DNA of 32,000 bases from Halomicronema hongdechloris C2206 (GCF_002075285.3 NZ_CP021983.2:4710001-4742000); one strand, 5' to 3'; positions 1 to 26,748 are shown, counted from the stretch's first letter. Notes: a model not told the origin generated them from the letters alone. Made by a program: numbers and translations.

Positions 1-12
1 TTGGAACTTTCT

Positions 13-591
13 TTACGCCATGCCGAAACAGGCCTGGACGGATACTTCGCAAGTTGGAAAGGCTTGCAGCCTGACAGATTGGGGGGCTTTTAGAACAAGC
101 TGACGCCGATACCCCCCGGGACTCGGCTCTCTGAATATATGGAGTTGCTGAGCAGAGAGGTTGAGAACCCAATAATCAAGAATGCCAGCGGCTGAGTATA
201 AATCGGCTTTGCTACCCAGATCGCGTTCCAGCGTCGTGTCAGCGACTTCAAGAATCAGGAAAACGTCTGTAGGGATCGGGTGATGACTAGCGTAAAAGTC
301 ATCTTGCGGGCGAACGACGGCGATATCTGGTTCCGGCTCTGAATAGTCGTCAAGCTGGATGGGATCTTGCATTCGCACCAGCGCGTGCTCTCCCAGTTGA
401 CTTTCGAGGAGCTTTTCAAGCCGCTTGCAGAGAGCGCTATGGGCCGGGCCTTTGGGCATTTTCTGAATGATTTGTCCGGCAATCAGCTCAACCTGTTCAT
501 CCGCACCAAGGATGCCGACTTCTGCCATGCGATGATAGTCAGCCGTGGAAATGAGACGAAGCTGGGTTAGCGATTGCGATGCTGCGATCAC
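13..591 (-). CDS. Uma2 family endonuclease (DUF820, restriction-endonuclease-like)
   Basis: 192-aa ORF. Its layout is typical of cyanobacterial Uma2/DUF820 proteins: STADYHRM..GIL, ELI.G.I, PEPDIAVV, FLILEVAD, YWVLN. Recognised from memory of the family; no search was run. Confidence 0.85.
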   Translation of the reverse strand: MIAASQSLTQLRLISTADYHRMAEVGILGADEQVELIAGQIIQKMPKGPAHSALCKRLEKLLESQLGEHALVRMQDPIQLDDYSEPEPDIAVVRPQDDFYASHHPIPTDVFLILEVADTTLERDLGSKADLYSAAGILDYWVLNLSAQQLHIFREPSPGGYRRQLVLKAPQSVRLQAFPTCEVSVQACFGMA

Positions 592-924
592 GGTTGTAGA
601 GGTCTAGCCTACTTGAATTCGATTATAGCGATGATGAATAGTGGTCCTGCTCCTCTGGCTACCCTAGAGCTCTACGGAGTGCAGCGCGGGCAAGATGTGG
701 ATTGTCGTGGATTATCGTGGTCTACCTCTGGATAAATCCTTTGAGGCTAACTCGTAACGCTTAAACATTGATAAGTACGCTTAAGTGTTAGCCGTAAACG
801 CTTAAACGTTACTTATGCTTGCTCAAGCATTTGGCCGTTTTGCTCAAGTCTTTGCCCTGATTGAGTCAGCCGTCAGGGAAAACCCTGAAACATTTAGCCG
901 ATTTCTGGTCGAATGATTAGCTTT

Positions 925-1029
925 GCTTAAGCATTAAGGGCAGACATATAAGCATTTGTCGAAATTGCTTAAGCGTTAAGGGCAAACGCTTAAGCATTAG
1001 GAGCAAACGCTTAAGTTTTTAGGGCAACT
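925..1029. repeat. Iteron-like 21-bp repeats with a GCTTAAG(C) core: three exact-phase tandem units plus one upstream copy
   Basis: The units read directly as 925-945 gcttaagcattaagggcagac, 967-987 gcttaagcgttaagggcaaac, 988-1008 gcttaagcattaggagcaaac and 1009-1029 gcttaagtttttagggcaact. Further (A/T)CGCTTAA(G/A) half-sites lie at about 757, 777, 798 and 1044, and a palindrome atgcttgctcaagcat at 815-830. Confidence 0.8.
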
Positions 1030-1332
1030 GCTTTCTGTTTTGGGCTTAACGCTGCCAGCGCAGCCACTAACCTACGTAGATTTCCCCAGATGGCGAAAAC
1101 GGGCAGCCAAAAGTTCCGGAGAACTACTCAACCCCTCCTCGATATCCCTGGATTACAGTATGGGTGTTCGCAATTGAGTTGCATGCATCAGGGATGCATC
1201 CCCGGAACGGTAAGGCGCTCAGGCTCCTGCTCATTTACCAATGACAGTCCTTACTCCTGCTGAGTCCATCACCCCCGATGACTGCCACTCAGCCTCGTTG
1301 TTCAACTGCTGTTCAACTCTGGAGAAAGACTC

Positions 1333-1698
1333 ATGTCACGACGTAAAAGAAGCTCGACAGTGCTTGAAAAAGCCGAACGCCGTATTGCCGGCATGCAATC
1401 TGTTGCAGATGATATTGACTTTGGCAGTGGGCTCACCCTAGCCACCTATGAAGCGCGGATTCAAGCCGCCCGGGAGAAACTGCAAGCCTATAACCGGATA
1501 CTCTCGATGGTGGACGGCGCCTACAACGACCTGATCGCAGCAGAGAAGGAGTTGATGGATTTTTCCGAGCGCATGTTGTCGGGGTTTGGGGTGCGCTACG
1601 GCAAAGACAGTTCGGAATATGAAATGGCCGGAGGCCAACGTAAATCCGAATACCGTAAGCGGACTCACCGCTCCACTGACGATGCCAATGTAGCGTAA
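1333..1698 (+). CDS. hypothetical protein (helical, basic C-terminus)
   Basis: 121-aa ORF with an ATG start, followed about 50 nt later by a strong intrinsic terminator. I recognise no domain. Confidence 0.55.
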   Translation: MSRRKRSSTVLEKAERRIAGMQSVADDIDFGSGLTLATYEARIQAAREKLQAYNRILSMVDGAYNDLIAAEKELMDFSERMLSGFGVRYGKDSSEYEMAGGQRKSEYRKRTHRSTDDANVA

Positions 1699-1749
1699 CC
1701 GCTGCCAGGCGTAACCCCTTCGTTTTCGATAGACCATAGGTACCTACTC

Positions 1750-1781
1750 GTGTACGGCCCACCATAGCCGTACACTTTTTT
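1750..1781 (+). terminator. Rho-independent terminator
   Basis: A 9-bp perfect stem gtgtacggc / gccgtacac (1750-1758 / 1767-1775) with an 8-nt loop, followed by TTTTTT at 1776-1781. It lies downstream of the 1333..1698 ORF. Confidence 0.7.
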
Positions 1782-1794
1782 AGTGATTGATCGG

Positions 1795-2279
1795 CGCCAC
1801 AGGATGGAAGGGGCAACACCCGATCCAAAACCATCGCGATCCACGCCCCCATCAAACTCGAAAGGTCTGGGAAGAAAGTCTTGAAGTGGCAATGAAAATT
1901 AAAGGGTCATAGGGGCGCCGACGAGTCGTTCGGATCAAGACCGGGCATCCGTTTACGGCCATTAGCCCAATTGCGGATGTGCATGCGAATCATAATGAGG
2001 CCCGGGATGCGACCCTAAGGCAACACCGTAGCACGTATCGTCGGCATCAAAACCTCTATGCTAAGACTCGTGGGGCATTACAACAGGCTTGGAGGTCCAA
2101 CGGCTCATCCATCATTGGGTCAGGTCCCATTGGGGTTAACATAACAGACCACTCCAGTGCTAGCAAAGCCATGCCCGCAGAGCTATTGGCGATGGGCTTG
2201 TGCGCTCGTCCCCTATCAACTCAGGACATCCTCTTGACGAGAGGGTTTCGATGTATCTCCTCTTAACAGACCAATGCCT
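1795..2279 (+). pseudogene. IS1-family transposase remnant (C-terminal part, with in-frame stop and frameshift)
   Basis: Reading across frames gives KVWEESLEVAMKIKGS*GRRR..HPFTAISP..VHANHNEARDATLRQHRSTYRRHQNLYAK..LEVQRLIHHWVRSHWG..ILLTRGFRCISS. This parallels the C-terminus of the fuller copy at 9659..10654. The terminal sequence cagaccaatgcc (ending about 2279) resembles the IR gaaaccagtgcc of that copy. Confidence 0.75.
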
Positions 2280-2428
2280 TTATATGTACTTAGTAACCCA
2301 TAGAGGAAGTAGTGGTACTGTGGAGGAGAATGGGCACTGTAATTCTGTATAAACCATTACAAATACTCTATGAAGCATAATAACTTGTATACACGTTTCC
2401 CAATTCTTCAAAAAACCTGATTTGGGTT

Positions 2429-2522
2429 TATAGCGGTTTTCAGAGTGAGGTACAACATACCTCCCGTAATGCTTGTATAGCAAGGCTCCTACGTACTTCA
2501 TCCGTCCGGGAACCGTTATATC
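2429..2522 (+). repeat. 95-bp repeat with terminal inverted repeats (MITE-like or structured RNA), copy A
   Basis: Near-identical to 5877..5973, differing by a 3-nt indel and two substitutions. The ends TATAGCGGTT...AACCGTTATA are inverted repeats. There is an internal hairpin gaggta-caaca-tacctc. Confidence 0.85.
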
Positions 2523-2557
2523 TATATTCTTCAAAATAAAGAAAATATATTTGGATC

Positions 2558-3178
2558 ATGATAGAACTACAAGCTGAGTCAATAGTACCTTCTTATTTCG
2601 GTGATTATCGAATGCTAGTTTTCTTAGAAAAACCAGGAGATTTGCAGCATATTGCTGTTGTATTTGGCTATCCTGAGAAAGAATTAGTTCCACTTGTTCG
2701 AGTACACTCTGCTTGCGTGACGGGTGAAATTTTTAGGGCAAGTAACTGTGACTGTAGAGAACAGTTAGATTATGCTTTCTCATTATTTAGAAAAGAAGGA
2801 CATGGTATTCTAGTTTATTTAGATCAAGAAGGCAGAGGAAATGGGCTTCCGGCAAAACTCAAAACTATGAAGTTAATCCAGGAGGGAGAATCTGTTAACA
2901 AAGCATTTCAGAGGCTCGGATATCCAGGTGATGCACGTCACTACGGCGTTGCAGCAGAAATTTTAGAAGAACTAGGAATTCACCAATCTATAGAACTCCT
3001 CACAAATAACCCAAAAAAAATTAATGAATTAGAGGCTGCAGGAATTCGTGTTGAAAGGCGTAGATCCTCCTATCTAAAGCCAAAGACAGAGCTCATTAGA
3101 AGAGAGTTAATATCTAAACGAGATGAACTAGATCATTATTTTCCTTCAGCGATAGAAATTGAGAAAAATGACGAGTAA
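2558..3178 (+). CDS. GTP cyclohydrolase II (RibA) family protein, atypical (Met at the catalytic Tyr position)
   Basis: 206 aa. It aligns by eye without gaps to E. coli RibA across RVHSxCxTGE, the zinc motif CDCxxQL, QEGRG.GL and LLTNNPKK. All three zinc Cys residues are present (C53, C64, C66). Confidence 0.9.
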   Translation: MIELQAESIVPSYFGDYRMLVFLEKPGDLQHIAVVFGYPEKELVPLVRVHSACVTGEIFRASNCDCREQLDYAFSLFRKEGHGILVYLDQEGRGNGLPAKLKTMKLIQEGESVNKAFQRLGYPGDARHYGVAAEILEELGIHQSIELLTNNPKKINELEAAGIRVERRRSSYLKPKTELIRRELISKRDELDHYFPSAIEIEKNDE

Positions 3179-4349
3179 ATCGATTATTCAATTTAGATCT
3201 GAGTGGAGAAAAGCAGTACATGAAACTCTAGTAGCATCATCAGCAACTGCAGGCGTTGTATTTGGTGGTGTGCGCTTGCTAAAAGAGTTCGGTCTATTGA
3301 CTGCTGTTTCAATTCAATCAACAGGCTCTATAGGATTATTAGCAGCTTTTAGCATATGCTTAGCAGGAGGCTTAATTGCTACATTGGTTCGCATGACAAA
3401 TCGATACATTAAAGTCAAAGATAATATTCATCTATCAGTAGATAAGGACGAGGTTATCTTAGACCTACTTAATGAATTATTTGACGAGAGGCGTCATGAT
3501 GAAGTAATTATAATTGGCTTTACTTTAAGTCGTATCCTTTGGGTTCAAGGGCGTTGGCAAACAAGAGTAGCGATTGGATATTTACTTGAGAAATCAGCAA
3601 TAACTACAAGTGAGCCAAATTATGAGGTTTATCTACATGCACTTGTTGACATGATTGGCTGGACGTCTGCGATGTTAGGAGATCATGTTACTGGAGAGAT
3701 GTACTTAAAGCGTGCTGTTCAGTATTCTAATGAGCATATTTCTAAATCACCAGCCTGTGCATACTACTTAGCAAAAGGTTATCGGCATTTAGGAGGAATC
3801 GCTTATAGAAAAGAAAATTTCTCCGCAGATGGAGGCGCAAAATTTTGGTTGGATAAAGCGTTGGAAAGTGCTGAAAATATTTCTTTAGATACTAAAAAAC
3901 AAGAAATGGTAGCAGGGATTGAATATGGAATTTCTGAAATTTTTATTCGTCAAGAATCTTACTGTGAAGCAGAAAAGCATTCATTAAAGTCGGAGAAAAT
4001 TTATACTGATATTGGTGATGAAGTACGTAAAATAAAAGTTTTGAATCAAAAAGGTCAAATTTATTTTAGTAAGAATGCCTATCCACAAGCATATTCTGCG
4101 TATTCACAGGCGATCTTCCTGGCTGAAAGAGATTCGAGAAAAGAACAGCGTGCAGAAGCTTATTATGGCTTGGGTCTACTTTACTTAGCTGAGGCTCAAA
4201 TTTCTAAAGGGCAAACAAGAAGCAAAAAGCGTAATAAAGCCATAGAAAACTTGGAAAAGGCGAGAAACTTTATGGAGGAAATAGGAATAGATTCTGATTA
4301 TATATTCGGAATAGAGAAAGAAATAAAAAGAGCAAAGCTATTTAAGTGA
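3168..4349 (+). CDS. membrane-anchored TPR-like repeat protein, unknown function
   Basis: The ORF is open from 3159 (TTG). ATG at 3168 is the likely start and overlaps the upstream stop by 11 nt. The N-terminus has a clearly hydrophobic segment (GSIGLLAAFSICLAGGLIATLV) preceded by a weaker one. The C-terminal two-thirds has TPR-like helical-repeat signatures (AYYLAKGYRHLGGIAY, AYSAYSQAIFLAE, AEAYYGLGLLYLAEA). Confidence 0.8.
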   Translation: MTSKSIIQFRSEWRKAVHETLVASSATAGVVFGGVRLLKEFGLLTAVSIQSTGSIGLLAAFSICLAGGLIATLVRMTNRYIKVKDNIHLSVDKDEVILDLLNELFDERRHDEVIIIGFTLSRILWVQGRWQTRVAIGYLLEKSAITTSEPNYEVYLHALVDMIGWTSAMLGDHVTGEMYLKRAVQYSNEHISKSPACAYYLAKGYRHLGGIAYRKENFSADGGAKFWLDKALESAENISLDTKKQEMVAGIEYGISEIFIRQESYCEAEKHSLKSEKIYTDIGDEVRKIKVLNQKGQIYFSKNAYPQAYSAYSQAIFLAERDSRKEQRAEAYYGLGLLYLAEAQISKGQTRSKKRNKAIENLEKARNFMEEIGIDSDYIFGIEKEIKRAKLFK

Positions 4350-5279
4350 ATGACAAGTATTGTAGGAGATTATGGCATTCTTATGCATGACGTCATTGTT
4401 TTAGGTGATATCAACCTAGATTGCTGTGTTTTAGGTAATCTTGAATTAGACTTTTCTTCATTGGTTGAAAATGGACGTATAGTTTGGGAGAAAATCGAAG
4501 ATCGTCCCGGAGGAACAGGCTTGAATTTTGCAATTTTAGCAAAAAAAAGAGGTTACGATCCTCTTCTAATTGGTCGAGTTGGAAATGATTTTCCTGGCGG
4601 CTTGTTGCTAGATTTTATCTCAAACTTAGGCCTTAATAAAGGAGTTTTTGTAGATAAAAACAACCCGACTGGACGAGCAGTTGTAGTAAGAGACGCAAAA
4701 GATATTCGATTGCTTATTGACAATAATACTAAAGAAAAATTGAACGCTAACCAGTTTCTGTCATTAGATAATATAAAATCTTATTCTGAAGAAATTAAAA
4801 ATTCCAGGTTTCTATATATCTCAGGCTTTTGCATAAAAGATAAATCTGTGCCAAGATTTGAGTCTGTACAACAGGCAATTGATATTGCAGTTAAAAATGG
4901 AACATCAATTATATTTGATGTTGTGCCGCATAAAATATACGAGGAAATAAGTTTTAAGCAACTTCGGGAAACTATTCCTCAGGCTAATATTGTGTTTTCA
5001 GAAGTTGCAACAATACGTCGACTATTAAGTTTAGGAACAACACAAGAAAATATTACTGAGAGAATTGCTGAAGAGACAGCACAAGCTTTACGAAAATTCT
5101 ATCACCGGTTTGCATTGCGCTGGGGCAGATCTGGTGTAGACGAAGAGATTATCTGGGATGGGATAGCAAGGAAAATGACTAGAAGATCCCATGATCATAG
5201 TAGTGCAGAAGAAAAACGTGGATTTGGAGATCAAATAGCTTTAGATGCGTTAGGAAATGTTTTTGGCCTTGGTCCCTAA
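4350..5279 (+). CDS. PfkB-family (ribokinase-like) sugar/nucleoside kinase
   Basis: 309 aa. It has the N-terminal VLGDINLDC strand, the GG motif (PGGTGLNFA) and the C-terminal anion-hole/catalytic motif as GFGD (canonical GAGD). Its ATG directly abuts the TGA of the upstream gene. Confidence 0.85.
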   Translation: MTSIVGDYGILMHDVIVLGDINLDCCVLGNLELDFSSLVENGRIVWEKIEDRPGGTGLNFAILAKKRGYDPLLIGRVGNDFPGGLLLDFISNLGLNKGVFVDKNNPTGRAVVVRDAKDIRLLIDNNTKEKLNANQFLSLDNIKSYSEEIKNSRFLYISGFCIKDKSVPRFESVQQAIDIAVKNGTSIIFDVVPHKIYEEISFKQLRETIPQANIVFSEVATIRRLLSLGTTQENITERIAEETAQALRKFYHRFALRWGRSGVDEEIIWDGIARKMTRRSHDHSSAEEKRGFGDQIALDALGNVFGLGP

Positions 5280-5327
5280 TATCAATTAAACTACTCTCTA
5301 TATTGTTGCACTGTCGATTGGATATTG

Positions 5328-5755
5328 AGTGCGATCGCCGCCCTCGTAGGTAACGAAACCCAACTTTAATGCTTATTAAACTCCAAGATCATCCTCAAAT
5401 AAAACGACGTTTTTCTCGCCCCAATCAATATCATAAATCCCATCTCAACATATCGATGAAAGCTCGAATAAAGCCAATCTCTCGGTCGATTTACAAATCG
5501 ATAATGCATTGGGTTGTAATGAATATGGAATGCGCTCCGTAGGAGAGTAACCATTTCAGGAACATGGAATAACGTTTGCCGTTGATAGGTGACAACCGTA
5601 AAAAAGTAAGTGCCACCCGGTGTGGTTGCTCGGCGGTAGCGTATTGTATTGCCCAATGTATTGATAATGTGAGTATGGACAATTTGATGGAATTCTAACG
5701 GTTGATGATGTTGGGTTGAACAACGTGAAACCCAACATCTACTGGGGCTGCTAGG
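5328..5755 (-). mobile_element. Internally deleted RAYT-like (IS200-like Y1 transposase family) element, copy 1
   Basis: The ORF 5366..5656 encodes IRYRRATTPGGTYFFTVVTYQR...LLRSAFH joined directly to IHYNP..RPRDWLYSSFHRYV. The N- and C-terminal signatures of REP-associated tyrosine transposases are present, but the central HUH/Tyr region is missing. A REP-like hairpin gttgggtt-N11-aacccaac lies at one end. Nearly identical to 7502..7944. Confidence 0.75.
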
Positions 5756-5880
5756 TAGCTCACGACGCGCAGCTCGTGGCAGTGATGTCAGCCTCCAATA
5801 TTAGTCACGTTTTAACTCTGAATCCGAATGATTTTGCTGGTATTTTGGGCATTAAGGTTGTTCATCCTCAGGAAATTATA
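5755..5880 (+). pseudogene. C-terminal fragment of a PIN-domain (VapC-like) toxin
   Basis: The translation VAHDAQLVAVMSASNISHVLTLNPNDFAGILGIKVVHPQEII matches the usual C-terminal layout of VapC toxins (HDA.LVA...LT.N..DF....GI.VVHP). There is no N-terminal part. It begins where the RAYT-like element ends and runs into repeat copy B. Confidence 0.5.
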
Positions 5881-5973
5881 GCGGTTTTCACTCGAGTGAG
5901 GTACAACATACCTCCCGTAATGCTTGTATAGCAAGGCTCCTGCGTACTTCATCCGTCCGGGAACCGCTATATC
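5877..5973 (+). repeat. 95-bp repeat with terminal inverted repeats, copy B
   Basis: TATAGCGGTTTTCACTCGAGTGAGGTACAACATACCTCCCGTAATGCTTGTATAGCAAGGCTCCTGCGTACTTCATCCGTCCGGGAACCGCTATATC. Same orientation as copy A. Confidence 0.85.
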
Positions 5974-6296
5974 ATTTTTAATGTGAGGAATTCTGGAAAC
6001 GCTGAATAAATGAAGTCTAACACCCCCAATGCACTCGACCGATTCAAATGTTATCTATGAGCATTATGCATTGTCGGCGGCGGATGATTGGAAACGTTGG
6101 GCGGCCTCGTACCTCGGTGGTGACATTGCAGCAAGGTTGCCTGTCGGTGTTTGGCTTACTCTGTCAAGAGGTTTATGGTTGAGAGGCCCTCTAAAATTAT
6201 CAACGCGTTAGCTATTATTTAAGAGGCTTTGTCTATATCGCAATGCCAGCAAGGCATCTATCCCCTCTACCCGCATTTTACAGGATAAGATATTTT

Positions 6297-6533
6297 ATGG
6301 TGAACATAACTGTTGATGAAATCCAAAAAGACCCACTAAAGTACCTGCGCCAAGTGGAAGCGGGTGAAACTCTTGTAATTATGCGCTTTAATCAACCAAT
6401 TGCCGAGCTGAGACCTATTGCTAGTAGTCAGCAGTTGCGACCATTTGGTTTGTGCGCAGGTGAGTTTACCGTTCCAGATGATTTCGATGCCCCCTTGCCA
6501 GAGGATCTACTGAATGCATTTGAGGGCAAATGA
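6297..6533 (+). CDS. Phd/YefM-type antitoxin (VapB-like partner of the downstream PIN toxin)
   Basis: MVNITVDEIQKDPLKYLRQVEAGETLVIMRFNQPIAELRPI is a typical Phd/YefM N-terminus. It overlaps the toxin start by 4 nt (ATGA). The ORF is open from 6243, but ATG 6297 fits family length better. Confidence 0.8.
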   Translation: MVNITVDEIQKDPLKYLRQVEAGETLVIMRFNQPIAELRPIASSQQLRPFGLCAGEFTVPDDFDAPLPEDLLNAFEGK

Positions 6534-6913
6534 GGATTCTGCTAGATACACATATCTTTTTGTGGTTCATTAGTGGCGATGCCCGGCTATCAATCGATGT
6601 TCGGGATGCTATCCGTGATCCAAGCAACGAAGTCTATCTGAGTGCAATTTCAATTTGGGAAGCAATTGTTAAGTACCAGCTGGATAAATTATCTCTGCCG
6701 GAGCATCCTGGAACGTATTTACCCAAGCAACGGGATCTTCATCAGATTGCTGGCCTCGTTCTTGATGAAAGCAGTGTGGTTCAATTGACTAATCTGCCAC
6801 TATTACATCGTGATCCGTTTGACAGAATGCTTATTTGTCAAGCCTTGCAGAATGGGTTAACTATTGCAACTGTAGATAAGGCAGTCCGCGCTTACTCAGT
6901 AAATGTCATGTAG
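6530..6913 (+). CDS. vapC: PIN-domain toxin, VapC family
   Basis: 127 aa. It has MRILLDTHIFLW (first acidic residue), SAISIWE, and HRDPFDRMLICQA with a late conserved Asp. The arrangement is a classic TA pair. Confidence 0.9.
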   Translation: MRILLDTHIFLWFISGDARLSIDVRDAIRDPSNEVYLSAISIWEAIVKYQLDKLSLPEHPGTYLPKQRDLHQIAGLVLDESSVVQLTNLPLLHRDPFDRMLICQALQNGLTIATVDKAVRAYSVNVM

Positions 6914-7112
6914 CAGCGCGGCCCAACACTACGTTGGTACGGAGGGCACAAAAGTTGAGTAGGGTGTTCCTATGCTGAAAAAGGAAGTGATGAAGAGGAT
7001 GATTATGAGCGATATGGTCTCTACTTCTCAGAAGCAATCGGCTACATAATTAGAGTGAATGGAAGTCGAGTCCCCCTTTACTACGGGGAGATTAAAGTTG
7101 TAAAAGCAACAG

Positions 7113-7379
7113 GTGAATATCATGCTATCCCACGAACCGGTCCTCGCCGAACAAGCTAAAACCTGGAAATTCCTGGAGCTATGGGTGGATCCAGTACTGT
7201 TTCCGCCCAAAATCCTTATGTTGATTGGTGACCAGGATGGGACTTGCCGAATTTTTAGCCCCGGCGCTAATTACAAATTAGTAGTTGCTCACTCAAATTA
7301 TGAAGCAGCAAGAGAATGGCTGCTTGAGGATGAATATGAACGGGTTCAAGGCCAACTTCTAGCAGAAGAAGTTCTTTGA
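7113..7379 (+). CDS. hypothetical protein
   Basis: 88-aa ORF with no recognisable domain. It is followed immediately by a hairpin repeat element. Confidence 0.45.
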   Translation: MNIMLSHEPVLAEQAKTWKFLELWVDPVLFPPKILMLIGDQDGTCRIFSPGANYKLVVAHSNYEAAREWLLEDEYERVQGQLLAEEVL

Positions 7380-7501
7380 TTACTTGCAAGTGACGGAGGT
7401 TGCTTAGCAGTGACTATGTAGCATAACAACCCCAATGCACCTGACCATTGAAAGTTTGTCAGTCAGTACTCAAGGGTTACTGCGACGGGTGATTGGGCGT
7501 T

Positions 7502-7944
7502 AGTGCGATCGCCGCCCTCGTAGTTGGGTTGAGGTAACAAAACCCAACTTTAATGCTTATTAAACTCCAAGATCATCCTCAAATAAAACGACGTTTTCCG
7601 CACCCCAATCAATATCATAAAACCCATCTCAACATATCGATGAAAGCTCGAAAAAAGCCAATCTCTCGGTCGATTTACAAATCGATAATGCATTGGGTTG
7701 TAATGAATATGGAATGCGCTCCGTAGGAGAGTAACCATTTCAGAAACATGGAATAACGTTTGCCGTTGATAGGTGACAACCGTAAAAAAGTAAGTGCCAT
7801 CCGGTGTGGTTGCTCGGCGGTAGCGTATTGTATTGCCCAATGTATTGATAGAGTATGGACAATTTGATGGAATTCTAACGGTTGATGAGGTTGGGTTGAA
7901 CAACGTGAAACCCAACCTACTGGGGCTGCTAGGACGATCGCACT
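7502..7944 (-). mobile_element. Internally deleted RAYT-like element, copy 2 (more complete ends)
   Basis: It has the same deleted ORF as copy 1 (inside 7550..7915). Both subterminal hairpins are present: agttgggtt-N9-aacccaact at the low-coordinate end and gttgggtt-N11-aacccaac at the other. The imperfect terminal inverted repeats are agtgcgatcgccgccctcgtag versus ctactggggctgctaggacgatcgcact. Confidence 0.75.
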
Positions 7945-8145
7945 GGGAACATTAGGCCGCGTGAACAATGAGATGAGCCCACAAGCGACCATTCAGTTTT
8001 GCGATAGCAAGTCCCAAATAAATAAGTAGACTTAACCCTGGTATCCAAACCCGTTACTCATTGATAAGGTACTGATGATTCAGAGAAGCTCATTGCTTTT
8101 GCTAGAATACAACACAAAGGCTTTATGCCCTAGGAGATCACCCAA

Positions 8146-8400
8146 ATGGCAATAGTTGTTACCCTTAGCCCTGAATTAGAGGCGTTGCTGCTTGACAAAG
8201 CTGCTCGGCGAGGTCAAGATGTGAGCCTTGTTGCGTCTGAATTGTTAGCTAGTATCTTAGAGTGGGAAGAGCAGGATTCAGAAGAGGCCATCAAGGGTAT
8301 TCAGCAAGGGTTAGACGATTTTGAGTCAGGAAAATTCCGGTCTTTTCAAGATTTTGCTGAAGAGAAACGCAGCAAATACAATCTGCCAGCCGATTCATGA
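8146..8400 (+). CDS. ParD/RelB-like ribbon-helix-helix antitoxin
   Basis: 84 aa, acidic. It has an N-terminal RHH-like segment and a IQQGLDDFESGKF segment typical of ParD-like antitoxins. It overlaps the downstream toxin by 4 nt. Confidence 0.8.
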   Translation: MAIVVTLSPELEALLLDKAARRGQDVSLVASELLASILEWEEQDSEEAIKGIQQGLDDFESGKFRSFQDFAEEKRSKYNLPADS

Positions 8401-8744
8401 AATATCGCATCGAAATTTCAAGCGTGGCAGAGGCTGAAGCAGATGGTGCATTTCTAAGGTTGTCCAAAGTTACCTCTCCTGCAAAGGCAAGCCAATGGTA
8501 TTCAGGGTTATTACAAGCAATTGAGTCTTTGTCTCAAATGCCTAAACGCTGCCCATTAGCGCGAGAGGATGAGTATTTTAGCCGAGAGATTCGCCAGTTA
8601 CTTTACGGGCGGGGGCGTAACTCATACCGAATCCTTTTTACTGTTTTGGAGGGGCAAAACACGTCAACGGCTCGCATTCTCCACATCCGTCACGCATCAC
8701 AGCAAACGATTGGTGAAGACTCTGAAAAACCCGACGCAACCTAA
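8397..8744 (+). CDS. RelE/ParE-family toxin
   Basis: 115 aa. YRILFTV....ARILHIRH is the characteristic C-terminal core of the RelE/ParE superfamily. Confidence 0.85.
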   Translation: MKYRIEISSVAEAEADGAFLRLSKVTSPAKASQWYSGLLQAIESLSQMPKRCPLAREDEYFSREIRQLLYGRGRNSYRILFTVLEGQNTSTARILHIRHASQQTIGEDSEKPDAT

Positions 8745-8880
8745 CAACCCGGTTGGAGCGGACTGACAAGAGAGCTTGGTTAGGTTACAAAGGTTACTAG
8801 CAGCTGCTCAACCGGAACGTTAGGCCTGTCGGGGGACAGAACGTCAGGGTTGGCATCTGGGGAAATAGCAAAGGGCTGTA

Positions 8881-9306
8881 TTGATGCCATTTCCTTCTGA
8901 ATATCAACGGGCAACGGATCACTTCTGTGCCTTCCTGACGGAGGTTCGTGATCGCTGCGGCTATGGGAGCTCTCATCAAGCCTATACCACCGTACAGGGG
9001 GTGTTTCAGGTATTCCGGTGCCGATTGAGTCTCGCAGATGCCATCAGATTCGCAGGCGCACTCCCCGTCGGCATGAGAGCGCTGTTCATTGCCGATTGGG
9101 ATCCAGATGAAGAGCGGCTACCGTTCATTGACCATGCTCAGATGAACTGTGAAGTCAGTCAGCTCCGCTCAGAGCACAACTTCTCTACAAGGACTGCTAT
9201 CGAAGAAGTCGCAACTTGCTTATGGCTGCATGTCGATCGTGAGAAACTCGAAGCTGTCTTGGCGAAGCTCCCAACTGCGGCAGCTGACTTTTGGTCCCCG
9301 GTGTGA
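8881..9306 (+). CDS. DUF2267-domain protein
   Basis: 141 aa. The pattern F...V......S.HQAY..VQGVFQVFR.RL...DAI.FA..LP...RALF...W resembles the DUF2267 repeat. Assigned from memory. Confidence 0.65.
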   Translation: MMPFPSEYQRATDHFCAFLTEVRDRCGYGSSHQAYTTVQGVFQVFRCRLSLADAIRFAGALPVGMRALFIADWDPDEERLPFIDHAQMNCEVSQLRSEHNFSTRTAIEEVATCLWLHVDREKLEAVLAKLPTAAADFWSPV

Positions 9307-9645
9307 GAGTTAGGTAGGATGGGCGACTCTATGACAAGACCCTTCAGCAAAGAATGAGTTCCTTAGGTCGCCCACCAACGCTGCAAAAAGCTAGGCATTG
9401 AATAGAGAACCCGTAGTGATTATCTTGTTCGAAATCTTTGTTAACCCACACCCAAACTACAATGCCACTGCTGAAAACATGGTGGGCAAACAAAGCTTAT
9501 AGGCACTAGCGAGGGGTGTCTAAGCTGTCGCGCATTTAAAGTACATTAACAGCGTTTCCCTTATTCTTGAGCTTGCGGTCCCACTTTATAATCAACTCTC
9601 CCTCATTGAGTAGCTTATTTACCAGAGCCTCAAGGACTCTCCTGT

Positions 9646-10714
9646 CGGCACTGGTTTCTCAAGAGGTGATGCAATGAAATCCTTGTGTCGTCAAGATTTC
9701 GTAGGTTGAGATCACGTGGTTACAGTATCCCATAGCCATGGCTGGTGTCGTCTTTTTGCCGAGCCCCCAATGGGGACGTACCCAGTTGTGAATCAAGCGC
9801 TGAACATCTAACACTCTCTGCAAGGCGTCCACCTTTTTGGCGTAGAGATTTTGGCGTCTTCGGTAGGCACTGGCTCGTCGTCGCAAGGCTGCATTCTGGG
9901 CTTCATTATGGTTGGCATGCACCTCCGATGGCGGGCTGATGGCCGTGAAAGGGTGCTCTGTTTTCACCCACTCAATCCGACGCCTACCTTGGGAACCCTT
10001 GATTTTCATCGCCACTTCCAGCCCTGCTCGCCACACTTTGCGTTTGCCGTAGGCACGAGGAACCTCGGTGGCTTTCAGCCAGAGGCTAGCCCATCGCCAC
10101 AAGGTCGTGCCGTAGCGGCGTTCCCCATCGGTAAACCATCGGATAAAGTGGGCAGGGCTAGCCCATTGCCAAGCCTTTGAAGTGCTTTCGTCAAACAGGG
10201 AGGACTGTTTTTCCCCGCCACTGCCGTCACCCAGTACCGGCTGTTCCGTTCGATGAAGTGAGCTCTCCAGCCCTCTGATTCAGAGGGGGGGAAGGTTCTC
10301 GCCCACGCGAGTGTAGACTTCGTCGCCTTCGAGGGTGACCTCACTGGCCTCGGGAGCGGGGGGTGACCAGTGTCCGCTATGGGCTGCTAGACGCCGTTCC
10401 CAGCTAATAATCGTGGCATGGGATTTGCCAAAGGAGCGTCCAGTGGCCCGCACTCCTAAGCCCTCTGTCCGCACATTGATAGCCGCAGAGACCATTGATG
10501 CGAGGGTTCGCAGGCGAGCCAGCGGGGTGTGAGTGCGGGCGTTAAATCGCTTGCCACAGTCTCGACAGAGATAACGTTGCCGAGTGGATTGGTCTTTCAA
10601 ACGGGCAGTCCCGTTTTTGACGGTCTTCTGACTTTGACAGTGGGGGCATCTCATGGGTTACAAGCTTTGCAGTGATATCATTCTAGCCGTCACCCTTTAG
10701 CAAACCAGTGCCGC
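9646..10714 (-). mobile_element. IS1-family insertion sequence with 12-bp perfect terminal inverted repeats; transposase broken into three ORFs
   Basis: The IRs are CGGCACTGGTTT (9646-9657) and AAACCAGTGCCG (10703-10714). The three ORFs are 10280..10654 (Zn-finger MRCPHCQS...CRDCGKRF plus HTH), 10075..10344 and 9659..10102. Concatenated, they give a continuous IS1-like transposase. Confidence 0.8.
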
Positions 10715-10773
10715 GGTGTTAGTTAGGCCATAAAAGTCGCGATAAGTTCATCTGAACCACCGTCGAACCTCGA

Positions 10774-12498
10774 GTGATGGTAGAACCTATCCGCCAGATT
10801 ATCGATAACCTCTACCGCACGGAGTCGCGGCGGATCTTTGCTACCCTGATTCGCCTGCTAGGCAACTTCGATCTGGCCGAAGAAGCCCTACACGATGCCT
10901 TCGCGGTAGCGACAGAACAATGGCCCCAGCAGGGGGTACCTGCGAATCCTAGAGCTTGGTTGATATCTACCGGTCGCTTCAAAGCCATTGACACCCTGCG
11001 GCGGCGAACCCGCTTTGATGCTTCCCTGGCAGGACTGGCCGCGCAGTTCGACTCCGCAACCAACCTGCCCAAGATCACCGATGATAGCTCGGTGGAAGAT
11101 GACCGTCTGCGGCTGATCTTTACCTGCTGCCATCCGGCCCTATCGCCAGAGGCCCAGGTGGCGCTGACTCTGCGGGAAGTGTGTGGCCTCACTACTGAGG
11201 AAATAGCCCATGCCTTCCTGATGTCACCTGCGACGCTGGCCCAGCGGATTGTGCGGGCCAAGGCCAAGATTCGAGATGCCAAAATTCCCTATCAAGTGCC
11301 ATCGGGCCCAGAGCTGCCAGAGCGATTGGAGACCGTGCTCCAGGTCATTTATCTGATATTTAACGAGGGGTATGCCGCCGCCTCTGGACCGTCGCTGACC
11401 CGGGCCAATCTTTCTGAGGAAGCGATTCGACTGGGGCGATTGTTGATGGCACTGCTGCCCAGTTCTGAGGTGATCGGCCTGCTGGCCCTAATGCTGCTGC
11501 AGGAGTCGCGGCGAGAGGCTCGCACGTCTCCTGAGGGCGATCTAATTTTATTGGAGGATCAGGACCGTGCCCTCTGGAACGTTAATTACATTGCCGAAGG
11601 TCGCGAGCTGGTGCAGCAGGTGCTGGCGGCAGGACGGGTTGGAGTGTACACCGTACAGGCTGCGATCGCAGCTATCCATGCCGAGGCTCCCAGCACCACC
11701 GCCACCGCCTGGAACCAAATTGTCACCTGGTATGACATCCTGTTGCAGCTTCATCCTTCCCCCGTGGTCGAGCTAAACCGAGCCGTGGCCGTGGCAATGC
11801 GCGATGGCCCCGTCGAAGGCCTGCAGTTAGTCGACACTCTTCTGAAACAAGGTCAGTTGAACAACTATCACCTGGCCCATGCGGCTCGGGCCGATCTCTG
11901 CCGACGGTTGGGCAAAACCACCGCCGCCAGGGATGCCTATCAGCAAGCCCTGACCCTGGTGAAGCAAGACCCCGAACGTCGTTTCCTTGAAAAGCGCCTG
12001 CAGGAACTGGGTCGAACCGACGCAAGCCCTCTCCCCAACGGTCTCATACTCAAAAACCCATACGAATTAGGAGATTTCACGATGAAAGTCATGGTTTTAG
12101 TCAAAGCCACGGCTGATTCAGAAGCCGGAGTCATGCCCACTGAGGAGATCCTGACCGCCATGGGCCAGTTCAATGAAGAACTGGTGAAAGCAGGTGTCAT
12201 GTTGGCTGGCGAAGGGTTGCATCCCAGCTCGAAAGGGGTGCGAGTGCAGTGCTCAGGCAAACATCGCACCATCATTGATGGGCCATTTACCGAAACTAAA
12301 GAACTCATTGCCGGGTTCTGGATCTGGCAGGTGCAATCTATGGCAGAGGCGATTGACTGGATCAAGCGTAGCCCCTTTCAAGATGGCGAAATCGAGCTCC
12401 GTCCTGTATTTGAAGCAGACGACTTTGGCGATGCCTTTACTCCCGAACTGCGGGCACAAGAAGATCGTCTGCGGGCTGAGATGGAAAAGCAGGGATAA
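10774..12498 (+). CDS. ECF42-type sigma factor (sigma2/sigma4 plus a long TPR-like C-terminal extension), in frame with a DGPF/YCII-related domain
   Basis: 574-aa ORF. The N-terminus has ECF sigma features (ESRRIFATLIRLLGNFDLAEEALHDAF, NPRAWL, and a sigma4 HTH LTTEEIAHAF.SPATLAQRIVRAKAKI), followed by a helical extension of about 230 aa. No stop codon occurs before the DGPF module. Confidence 0.85.
   Translation: MMVEPIRQIIDNLYRTESRRIFATLIRLLGNFDLAEEALHDAFAVATEQWPQQGVPANPRAWLISTGRFKAIDTLRRRTRFDASLAGLAAQFDSATNLPKITDDSSVEDDRLRLIFTCCHPALSPEAQVALTLREVCGLTTEEIAHAFLMSPATLAQRIVRAKAKIRDAKIPYQVPSGPELPERLETVLQVIYLIFNEGYAAASGPSLTRANLSEEAIRLGRLLMALLPSSEVIGLLALMLLQESRREARTSPEGDLILLEDQDRALWNVNYIAEGRELVQQVLAAGRVGVYTVQAAIAAIHAEAPSTTATAWNQIVTWYDILLQLHPSPVVELNRAVAVAMRDGPVEGLQLVDTLLKQGQLNNYHLAHAARADLCRRLGKTTAARDAYQQALTLVKQDPERRFLEKRLQELGRTDASPLPNGLILKNPYELGDFTMKVMVLVKATADSEAGVMPTEEILTAMGQFNEELVKAGVMLAGEGLHPSSKGVRVQCSGKHRTIIDGPFTETKELIAGFWIWQVQSMAEAIDWIKRSPFQDGEIELRPVFEADDFGDAFTPELRAQEDRLRAEMEKQG
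12082..12498 (+). CDS. YCII-related DGPF-domain protein (possible independent start inside the fused ORF)
   Basis: MKVMVLVKATADSEAG...IIDGPFTETKELIAGFWIWQV carries the DGPF motif. ATG 12082 is preceded by taGGAGatttcacg, an SD-like sequence. It is in frame with the sigma ORF. Confidence 0.6.
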   Translation: MKVMVLVKATADSEAGVMPTEEILTAMGQFNEELVKAGVMLAGEGLHPSSKGVRVQCSGKHRTIIDGPFTETKELIAGFWIWQVQSMAEAIDWIKRSPFQDGEIELRPVFEADDFGDAFTPELRAQEDRLRAEMEKQG

Positions 12499-12696: not shown

Positions 12697-13974
12697 TCAC
12701 AACCGGCCCGTGATAGTCGCCCAGTGGGTTCCAGCGTGAAAGTCAGCAACGGACCAGAACGGACCTTCAAGTGTCGTCGCCCCAATCGCCGGTGACGTGG
12801 CGAAGTCGAGGCCATTGTACCAGGCGCACCCTCCCGGGATTCCCAGCAGGGTGCCGAAGGAGAGGGGCAATCCCTGGCACCGGGGGCGGACGGAGGCGGT
12901 GGTGGTGATGATGCTCGCCCCTCGGCGCAAGTACGTAGCCGCGAAATCGCTGCCGAACGCGTTCGAGTTGCAGCCGACCGACCGCGCTGTGGCGTTGCGG
13001 GTGAACCAACAACGGCGGGGGAACAAGCCAATCTCGGCCTGTTCGAAGGTCGGAGCCGGTTCTTCTGGCAGGAGAGTAGACGGTGTGAAACTGGCCACTG
13101 CTCCACCCCACATTGAGTTTCCCCCGGCGTGACCGAAGATCAGGAAGTCTTGGATCGGTGTCGAGGTTGAGCCGTTGCTGGCGGCAGATTCGATGTCAAT
13201 GTCGGGGTCGCCGCTGGGGCTTGACACCGCCCCCGGATAAAAACGACTTGCGATCGCAGCGTCCCGCCACTGGCTGGCTGGATCGAAGAGATGAATCCGG
13301 AGCGTGACGCCAGTGGTAGCCGTCAGGTTCGAGACGTCAAACTCGTCACCTCGCCAGATCACGAGGGGATAGCGGCTCCCAGTCGCGGCGGGAGACTGCA
13401 TCCGCACTGGCCGAATGCAGGGCCAGTTGCGCCCGGATCCGGTAATCGATCGGGAGAGTCCCCAGAGGGTATCGGCATCACTATCGCTCACCGCAGTGTT
13501 GCCAGTGACGCTCCAGCGTTGAACCATCGGCGTGGGGCGCCCGCTGCCGTCCCTGGCAGTGCCCTGCTGGACGACATGGGTCAGCTCATGAACTAAGAGG
13601 CGTTTTCCCCGCGCTGTCTGCGGGGCGTACTCTCCGGCCCCGAAGACAATATGACGCCCCATGGTAAAGGCGCGGGCGTTGATCTCTCTAGCAGCCTGTG
13701 CCGATCGAGCCCCCGTGTGTAACCGAACTTGGCTGAAATCGTGGCCGAAGTGCGGCTCGACGACTCCTCTAATATCACGAGATAAAGGCTGACCACTGCC
13801 TGTCATTGAGTCAACGAGCGCTTCCATCCTGGGGCCGCTCCCGGACGCATGCTTTGCCTCGCCCCCCTTAGGCTTCATAGAGGCCCATTGGTTCCCCACG
13901 TTGCGCGACTGGCATTGCGGGCAGCCGCCACCGCAGGCACAAGCACGCTGCAGCCTCGGTCCAGAATCACCCAT
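12697..13974 (-). CDS. DUF4157-domain zincin-like protein with an uncharacterised C-terminal domain
   Basis: 425 aa. The segment PLSRDIRGVVEPHFGHDFSQVRLHTG..A...A..INARAFT.G..IVFG.GEY.......LL.HELTHVVQQ is the DUF4157 signature, including HExxH. The remaining roughly 270 aa are not recognised. Confidence 0.85.
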   Translation of the reverse strand: MGDSGPRLQRACACGGGCPQCQSRNVGNQWASMKPKGGEAKHASGSGPRMEALVDSMTGSGQPLSRDIRGVVEPHFGHDFSQVRLHTGARSAQAAREINARAFTMGRHIVFGAGEYAPQTARGKRLLVHELTHVVQQGTARDGSGRPTPMVQRWSVTGNTAVSDSDADTLWGLSRSITGSGRNWPCIRPVRMQSPAATGSRYPLVIWRGDEFDVSNLTATTGVTLRIHLFDPASQWRDAAIASRFYPGAVSSPSGDPDIDIESAASNGSTSTPIQDFLIFGHAGGNSMWGGAVASFTPSTLLPEEPAPTFEQAEIGLFPRRCWFTRNATARSVGCNSNAFGSDFAATYLRRGASIITTTASVRPRCQGLPLSFGTLLGIPGGCAWYNGLDFATSPAIGATTLEGPFWSVADFHAGTHWATITGRL

Positions 13975-25224: not shown

Positions 25225-26748
25225 ATGAGCGAAACCATCACCATTGCCGGAATTGAAATTCCCAAAGCCGATTGGGATGCAACCCCTGCCAGTGTGCAAG
25301 CCGTGGTGATGGTGTTGAGTGAGCGTCTTGCGCACATTGAAGAGCAACTCAAGCAAAATTCGAGAAATTCATCCCGTCCCCCCTCCAGCGATACCTTGAG
25401 TCAGCGCCAAGCGAAACCAGAAGAGCCATCATCGAGCAAGCGCCGCGAGTCTAAGCGCTCACAAGGAGCCCAAGGAAAGAAGGGGCATCAAGGATTTGGC
25501 TTTTATCCGGTCGAGGCGGCTCATCTGCATCATCATATTCCTGAGAGATGTCGCCATTGTGGTGAAGGACTGAGTGGGGTGGATGAGCAGCCTCATCGGC
25601 ATCAGGTAGTGGATGTGCCGCCCTTGAGCTTGCAGGTGGAGGAGCATCAACTGCACCAATTAACCTGCGAGTGCTGTGGCAAAACGACCCGAGGCCAATT
25701 CCCCCCAGAGGTCCCCACCACAGGCTACGGAGACCGATTGGTGAGCCTAGTCGGACTGTTGAGTAGTGGGGAGTATCGCCAAAGTCACAGCATGGCTCAG
25801 TCGTTGCTGTCGGTTGTGTTTGGCCTGGAGCTATCGCGTAGCAGTATTCATCGCATGCGCACTCAAGTGAGCGCAGCGGTGTCAGCCCCTGTTGCAGCGG
25901 CTCATGAGTATGTGCAGTCGCAGGCATCGGTGCATAGCGATGAGACGGGATTTCCGCAACGCAACCGCGATGGGGCCAATCCGCAGGGACGCAAAGGCTG
26001 GCTATGGGTGTTGTGTGCACCCTGGGTGATGGTGTTTTGGGTGTCGTTGCAACGCTCCCAACAGGCAGCAAAAGACCTCATAGGTGAGGGATTTACCGGG
26101 ATTGTTCACTCAGATCGATACAGTGCGTATAATCGGTTGCCCATCCATCAACGGCAGGTGTGTTGGGCGCATCTGAAGCGGGATTTAACCCAAATTGCCG
26201 AACGCAGTGGGGTATCCCAAGCGATTGGCACCGCCTTGTTAGCCCGTCAACGACGCTTATTTCGCTGGTGGCATCGGGTGCGGGATGGCACGATGATCCG
26301 TGAGCAATTAGGTGAAGCGGTGGCGCACTTGCGGGCCGGGTTCAAGGCGGAGTTGGAATCGGCCTGTGCCTTACCGATTGGGGCGAACGAAACGAGTGCC
26401 TTAGCCAAAAGTGTCAGCACCTTGCGTGAGATACTCAAGGTGGAGGATGCCCTCTGGACATTTGTGGATACCCCGGGAGTTGAGCCGACCAATAACACCG
26501 CCGAGCGGGCCTTGCGGTCTGGGGTGATTTGGCGGCGCACCACTCAAGGGTCTCAATCAACAGCGGGCAGTGAGTTTGTGGGTCGGATTTTGACGGTAAC
26601 CACCTCCCTCAAGGCTCAGGAGCGCAATGCTTGGGATTACTTGACTCAGGCGCTGCGAGCCCAGCGATTAGGTTTGCCTGCGCCATCCCTGTTACCCCTT
26701 CCTAAACCGCAAGACTTGCCTATGCCGTTAGCGTTGCCCCAAGCCTAA
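25225..26748 (+). mobile_element. IS66-family transposase gene (single-ORF type)
   Basis: 507 aa. It has an N-terminal leucine-zipper/Ser-Pro-rich region (NSSRPPSSD), a Zn-finger (CRHCGEGL...CECCGKT) and a DDE region (HSDETG..., YSAYN, CWAHLKRD). No tnpA/tnpB-like accessory ORFs lie upstream. I could not define the IS ends. Confidence 0.85.

Follow-up and report, generated by a model that had tools for sequence, protein, structure and literature searches.

What does a GTP cyclohydrolase II (GCH II) do once it has lost the tyrosine at its catalytic switch position? The question is raised by the first gene of a three-gene cassette in a 32,000-nucleotide stretch of the Halomicronema hongdechloris C2206 genome (NZ_CP021983.2:4710001-4742000; "the window" below means the whole of that stretch). 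The gene, which by position and judging from the tags of its neighbors is XM38_044780, encodes a GCH II homologue with methionine at the switch (Table 1) and is followed by genes for a membrane-anchored tetratricopeptide repeat (TPR) protein and a divergent PfkB-family kinase. The finding of most interest is that a rare, mobile, and fusion-supported triad of genes goes together with a distinct GCH II subfamily that lacks the tyrosine.

A GCH II fold with methionine at the switch position

Both sequence and structure placed the protein in the GCH II family. PF00925 (GTP_cyclohydro2) was the sole Pfam match and spanned residues 7 to 168 (E value, 2.9e-46; 157.5 bits against a gathering cutoff of 23.3). 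When the protein was compared with all chains of the Protein Data Bank (PDB) by phmmer, residues 5 to 107 paired with residues 6 to 108 of Escherichia coli RibA (2BZ0) at an E value of 1.2e-29 and without a gap, which bore out an alignment made by eye in an earlier note on this DNA. Identity was approximately 34% to E. coli RibA and 34 to 46% to GTP-specific enzymes. The zinc cysteines and the arginine that the note had matched to E. coli Arg128 were retained, and their columns were invariant across all 36 sequences of an alignment of relatives. The note had also set Met104 opposite E. coli Tyr105, and that placement held both in the HMMER alignment and in a structural model. The AlphaFold2 model, built on the 36-sequence alignment, had a pLDDT of 96.7 and superimposed on chain B of 2BZ0, the complex with GMPCPP and zinc, at a root mean square deviation (rmsd) of 1.2 Å over 169 columns (TM score by target, 0.93; Foldseek). 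Met104 lay in a helix of residues 97 to 108. No tyrosine was present within 10 residues of position 104. The observation of the note held in full.

The residues concerned have distinct roles in the E. coli enzyme. Tyr105 is said, in a 2005 study by Ren et al., to hydrogen-bond the zinc-bound water. Arg128 is positioned to form a covalent guanylyl intermediate (PMC10366380), and the zinc that the three cysteines bind is crucial to opening of the guanine ring and not to release of pyrophosphate (Kaiser 2002, cited in PMC10366380).

The protein is 100% identical to an H. hongdechloris C2206 deposit named "Riboflavin biosynthesis protein RibBA." No DHBP synthase domain was found in its 206 residues; the enzyme is not bifunctional, and the name is misleading. 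Scored against NCBIfam models, the protein failed the cutoff of the ribA equivalog TIGR00505 (150.3 against 205.85 bits) and passed that of the broader RibA subfamily NF001591 (162.9 against 148 bits).

Tyrosine prevails at the switch column. It was present in 91 of 121 sequences, a set made up of E. coli RibA and 120 listed homologues, and in 132 of the 164 domains recovered by an exhaustive search of representatives, and methionine occurred only three times in each set. Even the remote UTP cyclohydrolase 7EJ3 retained the tyrosine. The enzymes linked to the same module as in the window never had it; the switch residue was Met in the window protein and L001, Phe in L008, L009, and L036, Leu in P0130, and Ala in L007 (L and P numbers are our own handles). 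Every module-linked member did have the zinc cysteine triad and the equivalents of E. coli R49, the EGRG loop, R128, and K154. Because the nearest relatives have Phe, Leu, or Ala in place of the methionine, the conserved feature is the absence of tyrosine and not methionine itself.

Loss of the tyrosine was accompanied by a block of other changes in the pocket. In a comparison of 219 Tyr-type domains with 54 domains bearing a hydrophobic switch residue (E. coli numbering), S62 was replaced by A, R64 by N, I96 by N, Q108 by a hydrophobic residue, and N118 by F or Y, and Y182 was lost; the positions of this block are 76 to 100% conserved among Tyr-type enzymes. The window protein bears the full derived signature (A62, N64, N96, I108, F118, I179, and E182). 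A change of Glu53 to Ala was considered as a further co-switch with Tyr105 and was ruled out, as position 53 varies (E, S, Q, K, or A) among Tyr-type enzymes themselves.

Methionine at the switch also occurs in actinobacteria, in a different setting. The actinobacterial Met types recovered depart from canonical RibA at little more than the switch; they keep Ile96, Gln108, Asn118, Asn179, and Tyr182, and the Saccharomonospora protein (WP_307845922.1; P0144) keeps Ser62 as well; at positions 62, 64, 96, 108, 118, 179, and 182, P0144 and P0250 read S or A, H, I, Q, N, N, and Y. In a neighbor-joining tree drawn without bootstrap, actinobacterial proteins of the Met or Leu type branched near canonical RibA, and the window protein fell in a separate, derived clade. 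Since the actinobacterial Met types lie near canonical RibA and mostly keep its signature, we conclude that the methionine of the window protein appears to be an independent event within a different and more deeply diverged subfamily, and not a simple switch of the Streptomyces coelicolor type.

Replacement as a block of six or more positions, given as 94 to 100% conserved among Tyr-type enzymes, would also be consistent with a change of substrate, such that the subfamily acts on another purine nucleoside triphosphate (NTP), a deoxynucleoside triphosphate, or a modified nucleotide instead of GTP. The GCH II fold accepts UTP (7EEV/7EJ3), and the derived subfamily has Leu-type members in unrelated contexts within reduced-genome lineages. 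Such a change is nevertheless improbable in our judgment, as UTP cyclohydrolase, at 16% identity, has diverged much further and keeps the tyrosine, and as the window protein is still highly similar to GTP-specific enzymes in both identity and rmsd.

Tyr-less proteins were also seen in other settings. Leu-type members of the same subfamily were common on contigs resembling those of the candidate phyla radiation (CPR) or DPANN (L002/L003, L004, and L038 to L041), where their contexts were heterogeneous: one neighbored folK/folP, a second had archaeal ribosomal-protein surroundings, and a third adjoined an HD-domain nucleotidase. A Met-type Tyr-less member in the same set of contigs adjoins pyrF. 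No partner was consistently shared across the wider Leu-type loci that were inspected, beyond the one folK/folP locus. Separately, the exhaustive search returned GCH II proteins of odd architecture (P0126, P0128, P0129, P0131 to P0134, P0146, P0157, P0195, and P0137), in which GCH II domains came in pairs or triplets, the first of them lacking the zinc cysteines in many proteins; GCH II joined to a spermidine-synthase domain was among these architectures.

Association with kinase and TPR genes in a foreign island

Three closely spaced genes on the plus strand begin with that of the cyclohydrolase. The start of the TPR gene overlaps the cyclohydrolase stop by 11 nt, the start of the kinase gene abuts the TPR stop codon, and the three genes form a translationally coupled operon. 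The TPR protein has one strong hydrophobic segment near its N terminus (about residues 54 to 80) and one weaker segment, and it had four true relatives among 5.8 billion proteins, which makes a family of about five. The kinase is comparably rare, with only five relatives at an E value of ≤1e-5 in the same collection, one of them fused to GCH II. An AlphaFold2 model of the kinase (pLDDT, 82) had a ribokinase-like fold, with TM scores of approximately 0.6 to ribokinase, KDG kinase, and adenosine kinase in Foldseek. The hallmarks looked for in a PfkB kinase were a GG dipeptide, an Asp near the N terminus that binds sugar, and a catalytic GxGD motif near the C terminus. The motifs GDINLD, PGGTGLNFA, and KRGFGD are invariant in the kinase family and align with ribokinase SINAD and GGKGANQA, the C-terminal motif being matched by eye only. 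Foldseek and PDB profile matches were generic (IolC, KDG kinase, ribokinase, and adenosine kinase; 14 to 20% identity) and singled out no substrate for the kinase. An E-value scan with Rfam found no riboswitch or other RNA in positions 1 to 12000. A scan for promoters and terminators in positions 2200 to 6100 was uninformative, with fewer promoter-like sites than in shuffled sequence and no convincing terminator.

The triad recurs on five other metagenomic contigs, unrelated to one another, in genomes that span 38 to 60% GC. On L001, a contig of 60% GC, the GCH II, TPR, and PfkB genes stand in identical order and encode proteins 66, 48, and 55% identical to those of the window, respectively, and the same order was found on L008, L009, and L036. 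On L007, a 648-residue TPR protein is followed by a single 497-residue fusion of GCH II to PfkB, with HicA-type toxin genes nearby, and P0130 is a second, independent GCH II-PfkB fusion of 556 residues. Linkage across genomes of such different composition, together with the two gene fusions, is strong evidence, from gene arrangement, that the cyclohydrolase and the kinase act in one pathway or complex.

One related locus is damaged. On L010 (positions 7704 to 8901; a proteobacterial metagenome-assembled genome from Microflora Danica), the C-terminal half of a GCH II is fused to a frameshifted cassette-type PfkB. Either the copy is decaying or the damage is an artifact of long-read sequencing. 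The window cassette might likewise be a decaying relic without function, being a singleton within a region rich in mobile elements. We find this hardly credible, as its three open reading frames (ORFs) are intact and translationally coupled, the cyclohydrolase model is very confident, all three proteins are conserved in very different genomes, and the catalytic residues and 18 columns of the 36-sequence alignment are invariant among relatives 38 to 66% identical.

The partners of the cyclohydrolase also occur in other combinations. Downstream of the TPR relative P0278 lie a NUDIX hydrolase, a histidine phosphatase, and an alpha/beta hydrolase instead of GCH II. On L011 (positions 5744 to 9957), a 743-residue Maf-PfkB-Maf protein is followed by a cassette-type PfkB, 43% identical to that of the window, and then by a 342-residue, weakly NDK-like protein, an arrangement resembling a sister module that lacks GCH II. 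As GCH II, Maf, and NUDIX proteins all cleave a nucleotide pyrophosphate linkage, we conclude that the common theme of the modules is nucleotide pyrophosphohydrolysis coupled to phosphotransfer. Kinase relatives were not found on phages, plasmids, or viral contigs, and the phage GCH II matches were ordinary Tyr-type enzymes.

Two further observations concern these loci. A cassette-type membrane TPR protein followed by NUDIX, histidine phosphatase, and alpha/beta hydrolase genes was seen in several soil metagenomes (L032 to L035; for example, L032 4117 to 7298). A ROCO (LRR-Roc-COR) protein adjoins the Maf-PfkB-Maf locus.

The modular pairings bear on whether the enzyme is a plain GTP pyrophosphatase that converts GTP to GMP and pyrophosphate without opening the ring productively, that is, a GTP-draining effector of a stress or conflict module in which the TPR protein would be a sensor or regulator and the kinase an accessory. 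NUDIX and Maf proteins are nucleotide pyrophosphatases, and the former accompany relatives of the TPR protein (together with histidine phosphatase) and the latter accompany relatives of the kinase. A pyrophosphatase would also be consistent with a switch residue that is unconstrained (M, F, L, or A), with the GMP that E. coli Y105F reportedly gives as its only product, and with the location of the module in an island containing toxin-antitoxin genes and mobile elements. Such an activity would, however, leave the tight coupling or fusion to the kinase without a role, and no member has lost any of the three zinc cysteines although pyrophosphate release needs no zinc (PMC10366380). The lack of a PADLOC match for the three window proteins and the absence of kinase relatives from the phages, plasmids, and viral contigs searched argue in the same direction. 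On balance, we regard a plain pyrophosphatase as unlikely, though as the likeliest of the rival readings.

The composition of the cassette sets it apart from its surroundings. Its three genes are 34 to 38% GC, against 55 to 62% for the core of the window, and the operon as a whole is 35% GC in a genome of approximately 57%. The HIP1 octamer GCGATCGC, a typical cyanobacterial signature, occurred 12 times in the window, against 0.56 expected, and not once within the cassette (positions 2523 to 5330). A direct repeat of approximately 97 nt, present in only two copies in the window where 0 would be expected by chance, brackets the cassette together with a truncated element resembling a REP-associated tyrosine transposase (RAYT), and it could have arisen as an attL/attR-like scar or by duplication of a dispersed element. 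The RAYT assignment was made by eye, and the ORF had no Pfam match. Accessory genes assigned by Pfam around the island (positions 13 to 591, 6243 to 6913, 8146 to 8744, 10280 to 10654, and 25225 to 26748) comprise a Uma2 endonuclease, a Phd-like/PIN pair, an antitoxin/ParE pair, an IS1 InsA-like fragment, and an IS66 transposase. No rib gene was present among the scanned ORFs of the window. We conclude that the cassette is a discrete island acquired by horizontal transfer.

The island also bears on the database name, according to which the enzyme would be an ordinary RibA or RibBA of riboflavin biosynthesis. Passage of the NF001591 cutoff and retention of the zinc site and arginine are in keeping with that name. 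The switch tyrosine and a DHBP synthase domain are nevertheless lacking, the gene has foreign GC content and flanking repeats, and its conserved linkage is to the kinase and TPR protein rather than to rib genes, such that an ordinary riboflavin enzyme is highly improbable. The earlier note had suspected that the enzyme does not feed riboflavin synthesis, and the context fits: a place outside that pathway is well supported by the foreign island, the absence of rib genes in 32 kb, the operon with kinase and TPR genes, and the failed TIGR00505 cutoff.

Table 1. Positions of the cassette genes, the key codons of the cyclohydrolase, and the bordering elements in the window
Feature	Position	Strand	Remarks
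Tyr-less GTP cyclohydrolase II homologue	2558..3178	+	206 aa, ATG to TAA, intact ORF; H. hongdechloris
Zinc motif CX2GX7CXC, C53/C64/C66	2714..2755 (codons 2714-2716, 2747-2749, 2753-2755)	+	Aligned with E. coli C54/C65/C67
Met104 codon, "switch" position	2867..2869	+	Opposite E. coli Tyr105; ungapped HMMER alignment, MAFFT, hmmalign
Arg127 codon	2936..2938	+	Aligned with E. coli Arg128 (nucleophile for pyrophosphate release)
Membrane-anchored TPR protein, XM38_044790	3168..4349	+	393 aa from ATG 3168; ORF open from TTG 3159; TPR_12/TPR_1 matches
Divergent PfkB-family kinase, XM38_044800	4350..5279	+	309 aa; PF00294, E value 1.9e-16, 60.7 bits vs 25.8
Left copy of ~97-nt direct repeat	2426..2522	+	Repeat search: 80 nt, 98%; pairwise alignment extends to ~97 nt
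Right copy of ~97-nt direct repeat	5874..5973	+	Repeat search, pairwise alignment
Truncated RAYT/IS200-like element copy	5348..5736	-	Inside repeat-bracketed segment; second copy 7532-7916, 97-98% identical

Other features of the window were observed in passing. ORFs at positions 1979 to 2266 and 9659 to 10102 share a transposase-like motif (HANHNEA...RRQNLYAK) and had no Pfam match. Positions 925 to 1033 hold a short array of units of approximately 21 nt (GCTTAAGCRTTARGGGCAAAC-like), which an imperfect inverted repeat overlaps. Positions 12697 to 13974 on the minus strand, where the GC content of the window is high, encode a 425-residue protein with an extracellular contractile injection system (eCIS) core domain of the DUF4157 type at residues 62 to 139 and a long cysteine-rich tail.

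A proposed reaction and its consequences

We propose that the protein is a catalytically competent, re-purposed GCH II-fold enzyme in a mobile module outside riboflavin synthesis, where it would convert GTP to a formylated product (or to GMP) for the kinase. The proposal is tentative, and we rate its chance as a little short of even. In the proposed reaction, an NTP would be bound and its pyrophosphate expelled via a guanylyl intermediate on Arg127, the counterpart of E. coli Arg128, and a zinc-bound water would be activated for attack on C8. Without the tyrosine, the deformylation step would not be completed, and GTP would yield pyrophosphate and a ring-opened, formylated 5′-monophosphate. 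The predicted product is 2-amino-5-formylamino-6-ribosylamino-4(3H)-pyrimidinone 5′-phosphate ("FAPy"), with GMP as a fallback. By conjecture, the product, or a derivative of it, would be passed to the cotranscribed, sometimes fused PfkB-type kinase for further phosphorylation, and the membrane-anchored TPR protein may act as a regulator or scaffold.

Conservation is consistent with much of this scheme. Because the zinc triad, the arginine, the EGRG loop, and Lys154 are kept in all module-linked enzymes, we infer that the enzyme can still release pyrophosphate and carry out the zinc-dependent attack on the base. Moreover, since zinc is needed for ring opening and not for pyrophosphate release, strict conservation of the zinc site suggests that the ring chemistry is still under selection.

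Several points weigh against the proposal. The precedent for FAPy release comes from a lineage with an otherwise canonical pocket. E. coli Y105F reportedly gives only GMP, and three members of the module have Phe. The pocket changes A62, N64, N96, and F118 could alter specificity or provide another route to deformylation. A canonical PfkB site should transfer phosphate to a hydroxyl, and a 5′-phosphate is already present on the GCH II product, which makes the kinase step conjectural. Finally, the Maf and NUDIX partners in related loci hint that pyrophosphatase activity alone matters. The S. coelicolor-like product that the earlier note had put forward stands as plausible, but it was extrapolated from a different lineage to an enzyme whose pocket has diverged and whose relatives carry Phe, Leu, or Ala.

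The module of GCH II, membrane TPR protein, and PfkB kinase could also be a mobile conflict system, whether anti-phage or stress related, of a kind undescribed so far; we give this only a small chance. As a conflict system, it would convert GTP to a formamidopyrimidine nucleotide that the kinase rephosphorylates toward a polymerase-poisoning or signaling nucleotide, or it would simply collapse the GTP pool. The TPR protein would then be a swappable sensor or regulator, one that is also paired with Maf and NUDIX effectors. The defense models of PADLOC-DB 2.0 matched neither the three window proteins nor most of the partner proteins; the L007 TPR protein alone was matched, by a generic TPR model. 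No link between GCH II and anti-phage defense was found in the literature searched.

The analysis has consequences at several levels. It corrects an annotation, in that the "RibBA" of the database is not bifunctional and very probably has no part in riboflavin synthesis, and it defines a Tyr-less GCH II subfamily distinct from the sole Met-type enzyme studied experimentally. The natural series of Met, Phe, Leu, and Ala, together with the covarying pocket block, offers a handle on how ring opening and deformylation are separately controlled. Strict linkage or fusion to a rare PfkB family, with a membrane TPR protein and within a mobile island, points to an uncharacterized GTP-derived metabolite or GTP-consuming system. 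A phosphorylated formamidopyrimidine nucleotide, should that be the product, would add a new small molecule to those known from bacteria, and if the module is defensive, GTP ring opening would be added to nucleotide-based immunity.

Comparison with known systems

The closest well-studied system is E. coli RibA (EC 3.5.4.25; 2BZ0/2BZ1), with which the window protein shares the fold, the zinc motif, Arg128, the EGRG loop, and Lys154. Unlike E. coli RibA, it lacks Tyr105 (Met in its place), Ser62, Arg64, Ile96, Gln108, Asn118, Asn179, and Tyr182, and its gene was horizontally acquired and sits in an operon with PfkB kinase and TPR genes without rib linkage.

The S. coelicolor Met-type enzyme (SCO6655, Met120), in work attributed to Spoonamore and Bandarian from 2006 and 2008, reportedly goes no further than the formylated product, and replacing the Met by Tyr is said to restore the RibA reaction. 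Enzymes of this type are the only experimental precedent for methionine at the switch, and like the window protein they combine it with a retained zinc site and arginine. The two differ in that the actinobacterial Met proxies (P0144 and P0250), which were compared in place of SCO6655 itself, have a mostly canonical pocket and lie near canonical RibA; Saccharomonospora-like actinobacterial Met and Leu types are probably related to the S. coelicolor enzyme that was studied. The earlier note had credited several S. coelicolor paralogues with altered function, and here it overreached, as a 2026 review reports a new function for one of the three S. coelicolor GCH II copies only, the third copy being divergent (PMC13151069).

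The reaction predicted for the window protein is performed by archaeal GTP cyclohydrolase III (ArfA), which converts GTP to FAPy and pyrophosphate (PMC7288161). Unlike the window protein, which had no match to the ArfA family PF05165, ArfA has an unrelated, GGDEF/cyclase-like fold and a two-metal mechanism. The UTP cyclohydrolase or URC1-like proteins (7EEV and 7EJ3; PRK07198) do belong to the same fold family and show that the scaffold can change substrate. They differ from the window protein in their low identity to it (approximately 16%), their extra N-terminal domain (GTP_CH_N), and the tyrosine kept at the switch; the window protein scored 29.7 bits against the PRK07198 cutoff of 403 and has no N-terminal extension.

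Finally, the module invites comparison with anti-phage systems that act on nucleotide pools (for example, dGTPase, dCTP deaminase, and viperin-type nucleotide modifiers). There is no sequence relationship to any PADLOC model, and the resemblance is one of architecture only. As in those systems, an NTP-consuming enzyme is encoded in a small mobile operon within an island rich in toxin-antitoxin genes and mobile elements, and a repeat-protein partner of the window type is reused with other nucleotide hydrolases.

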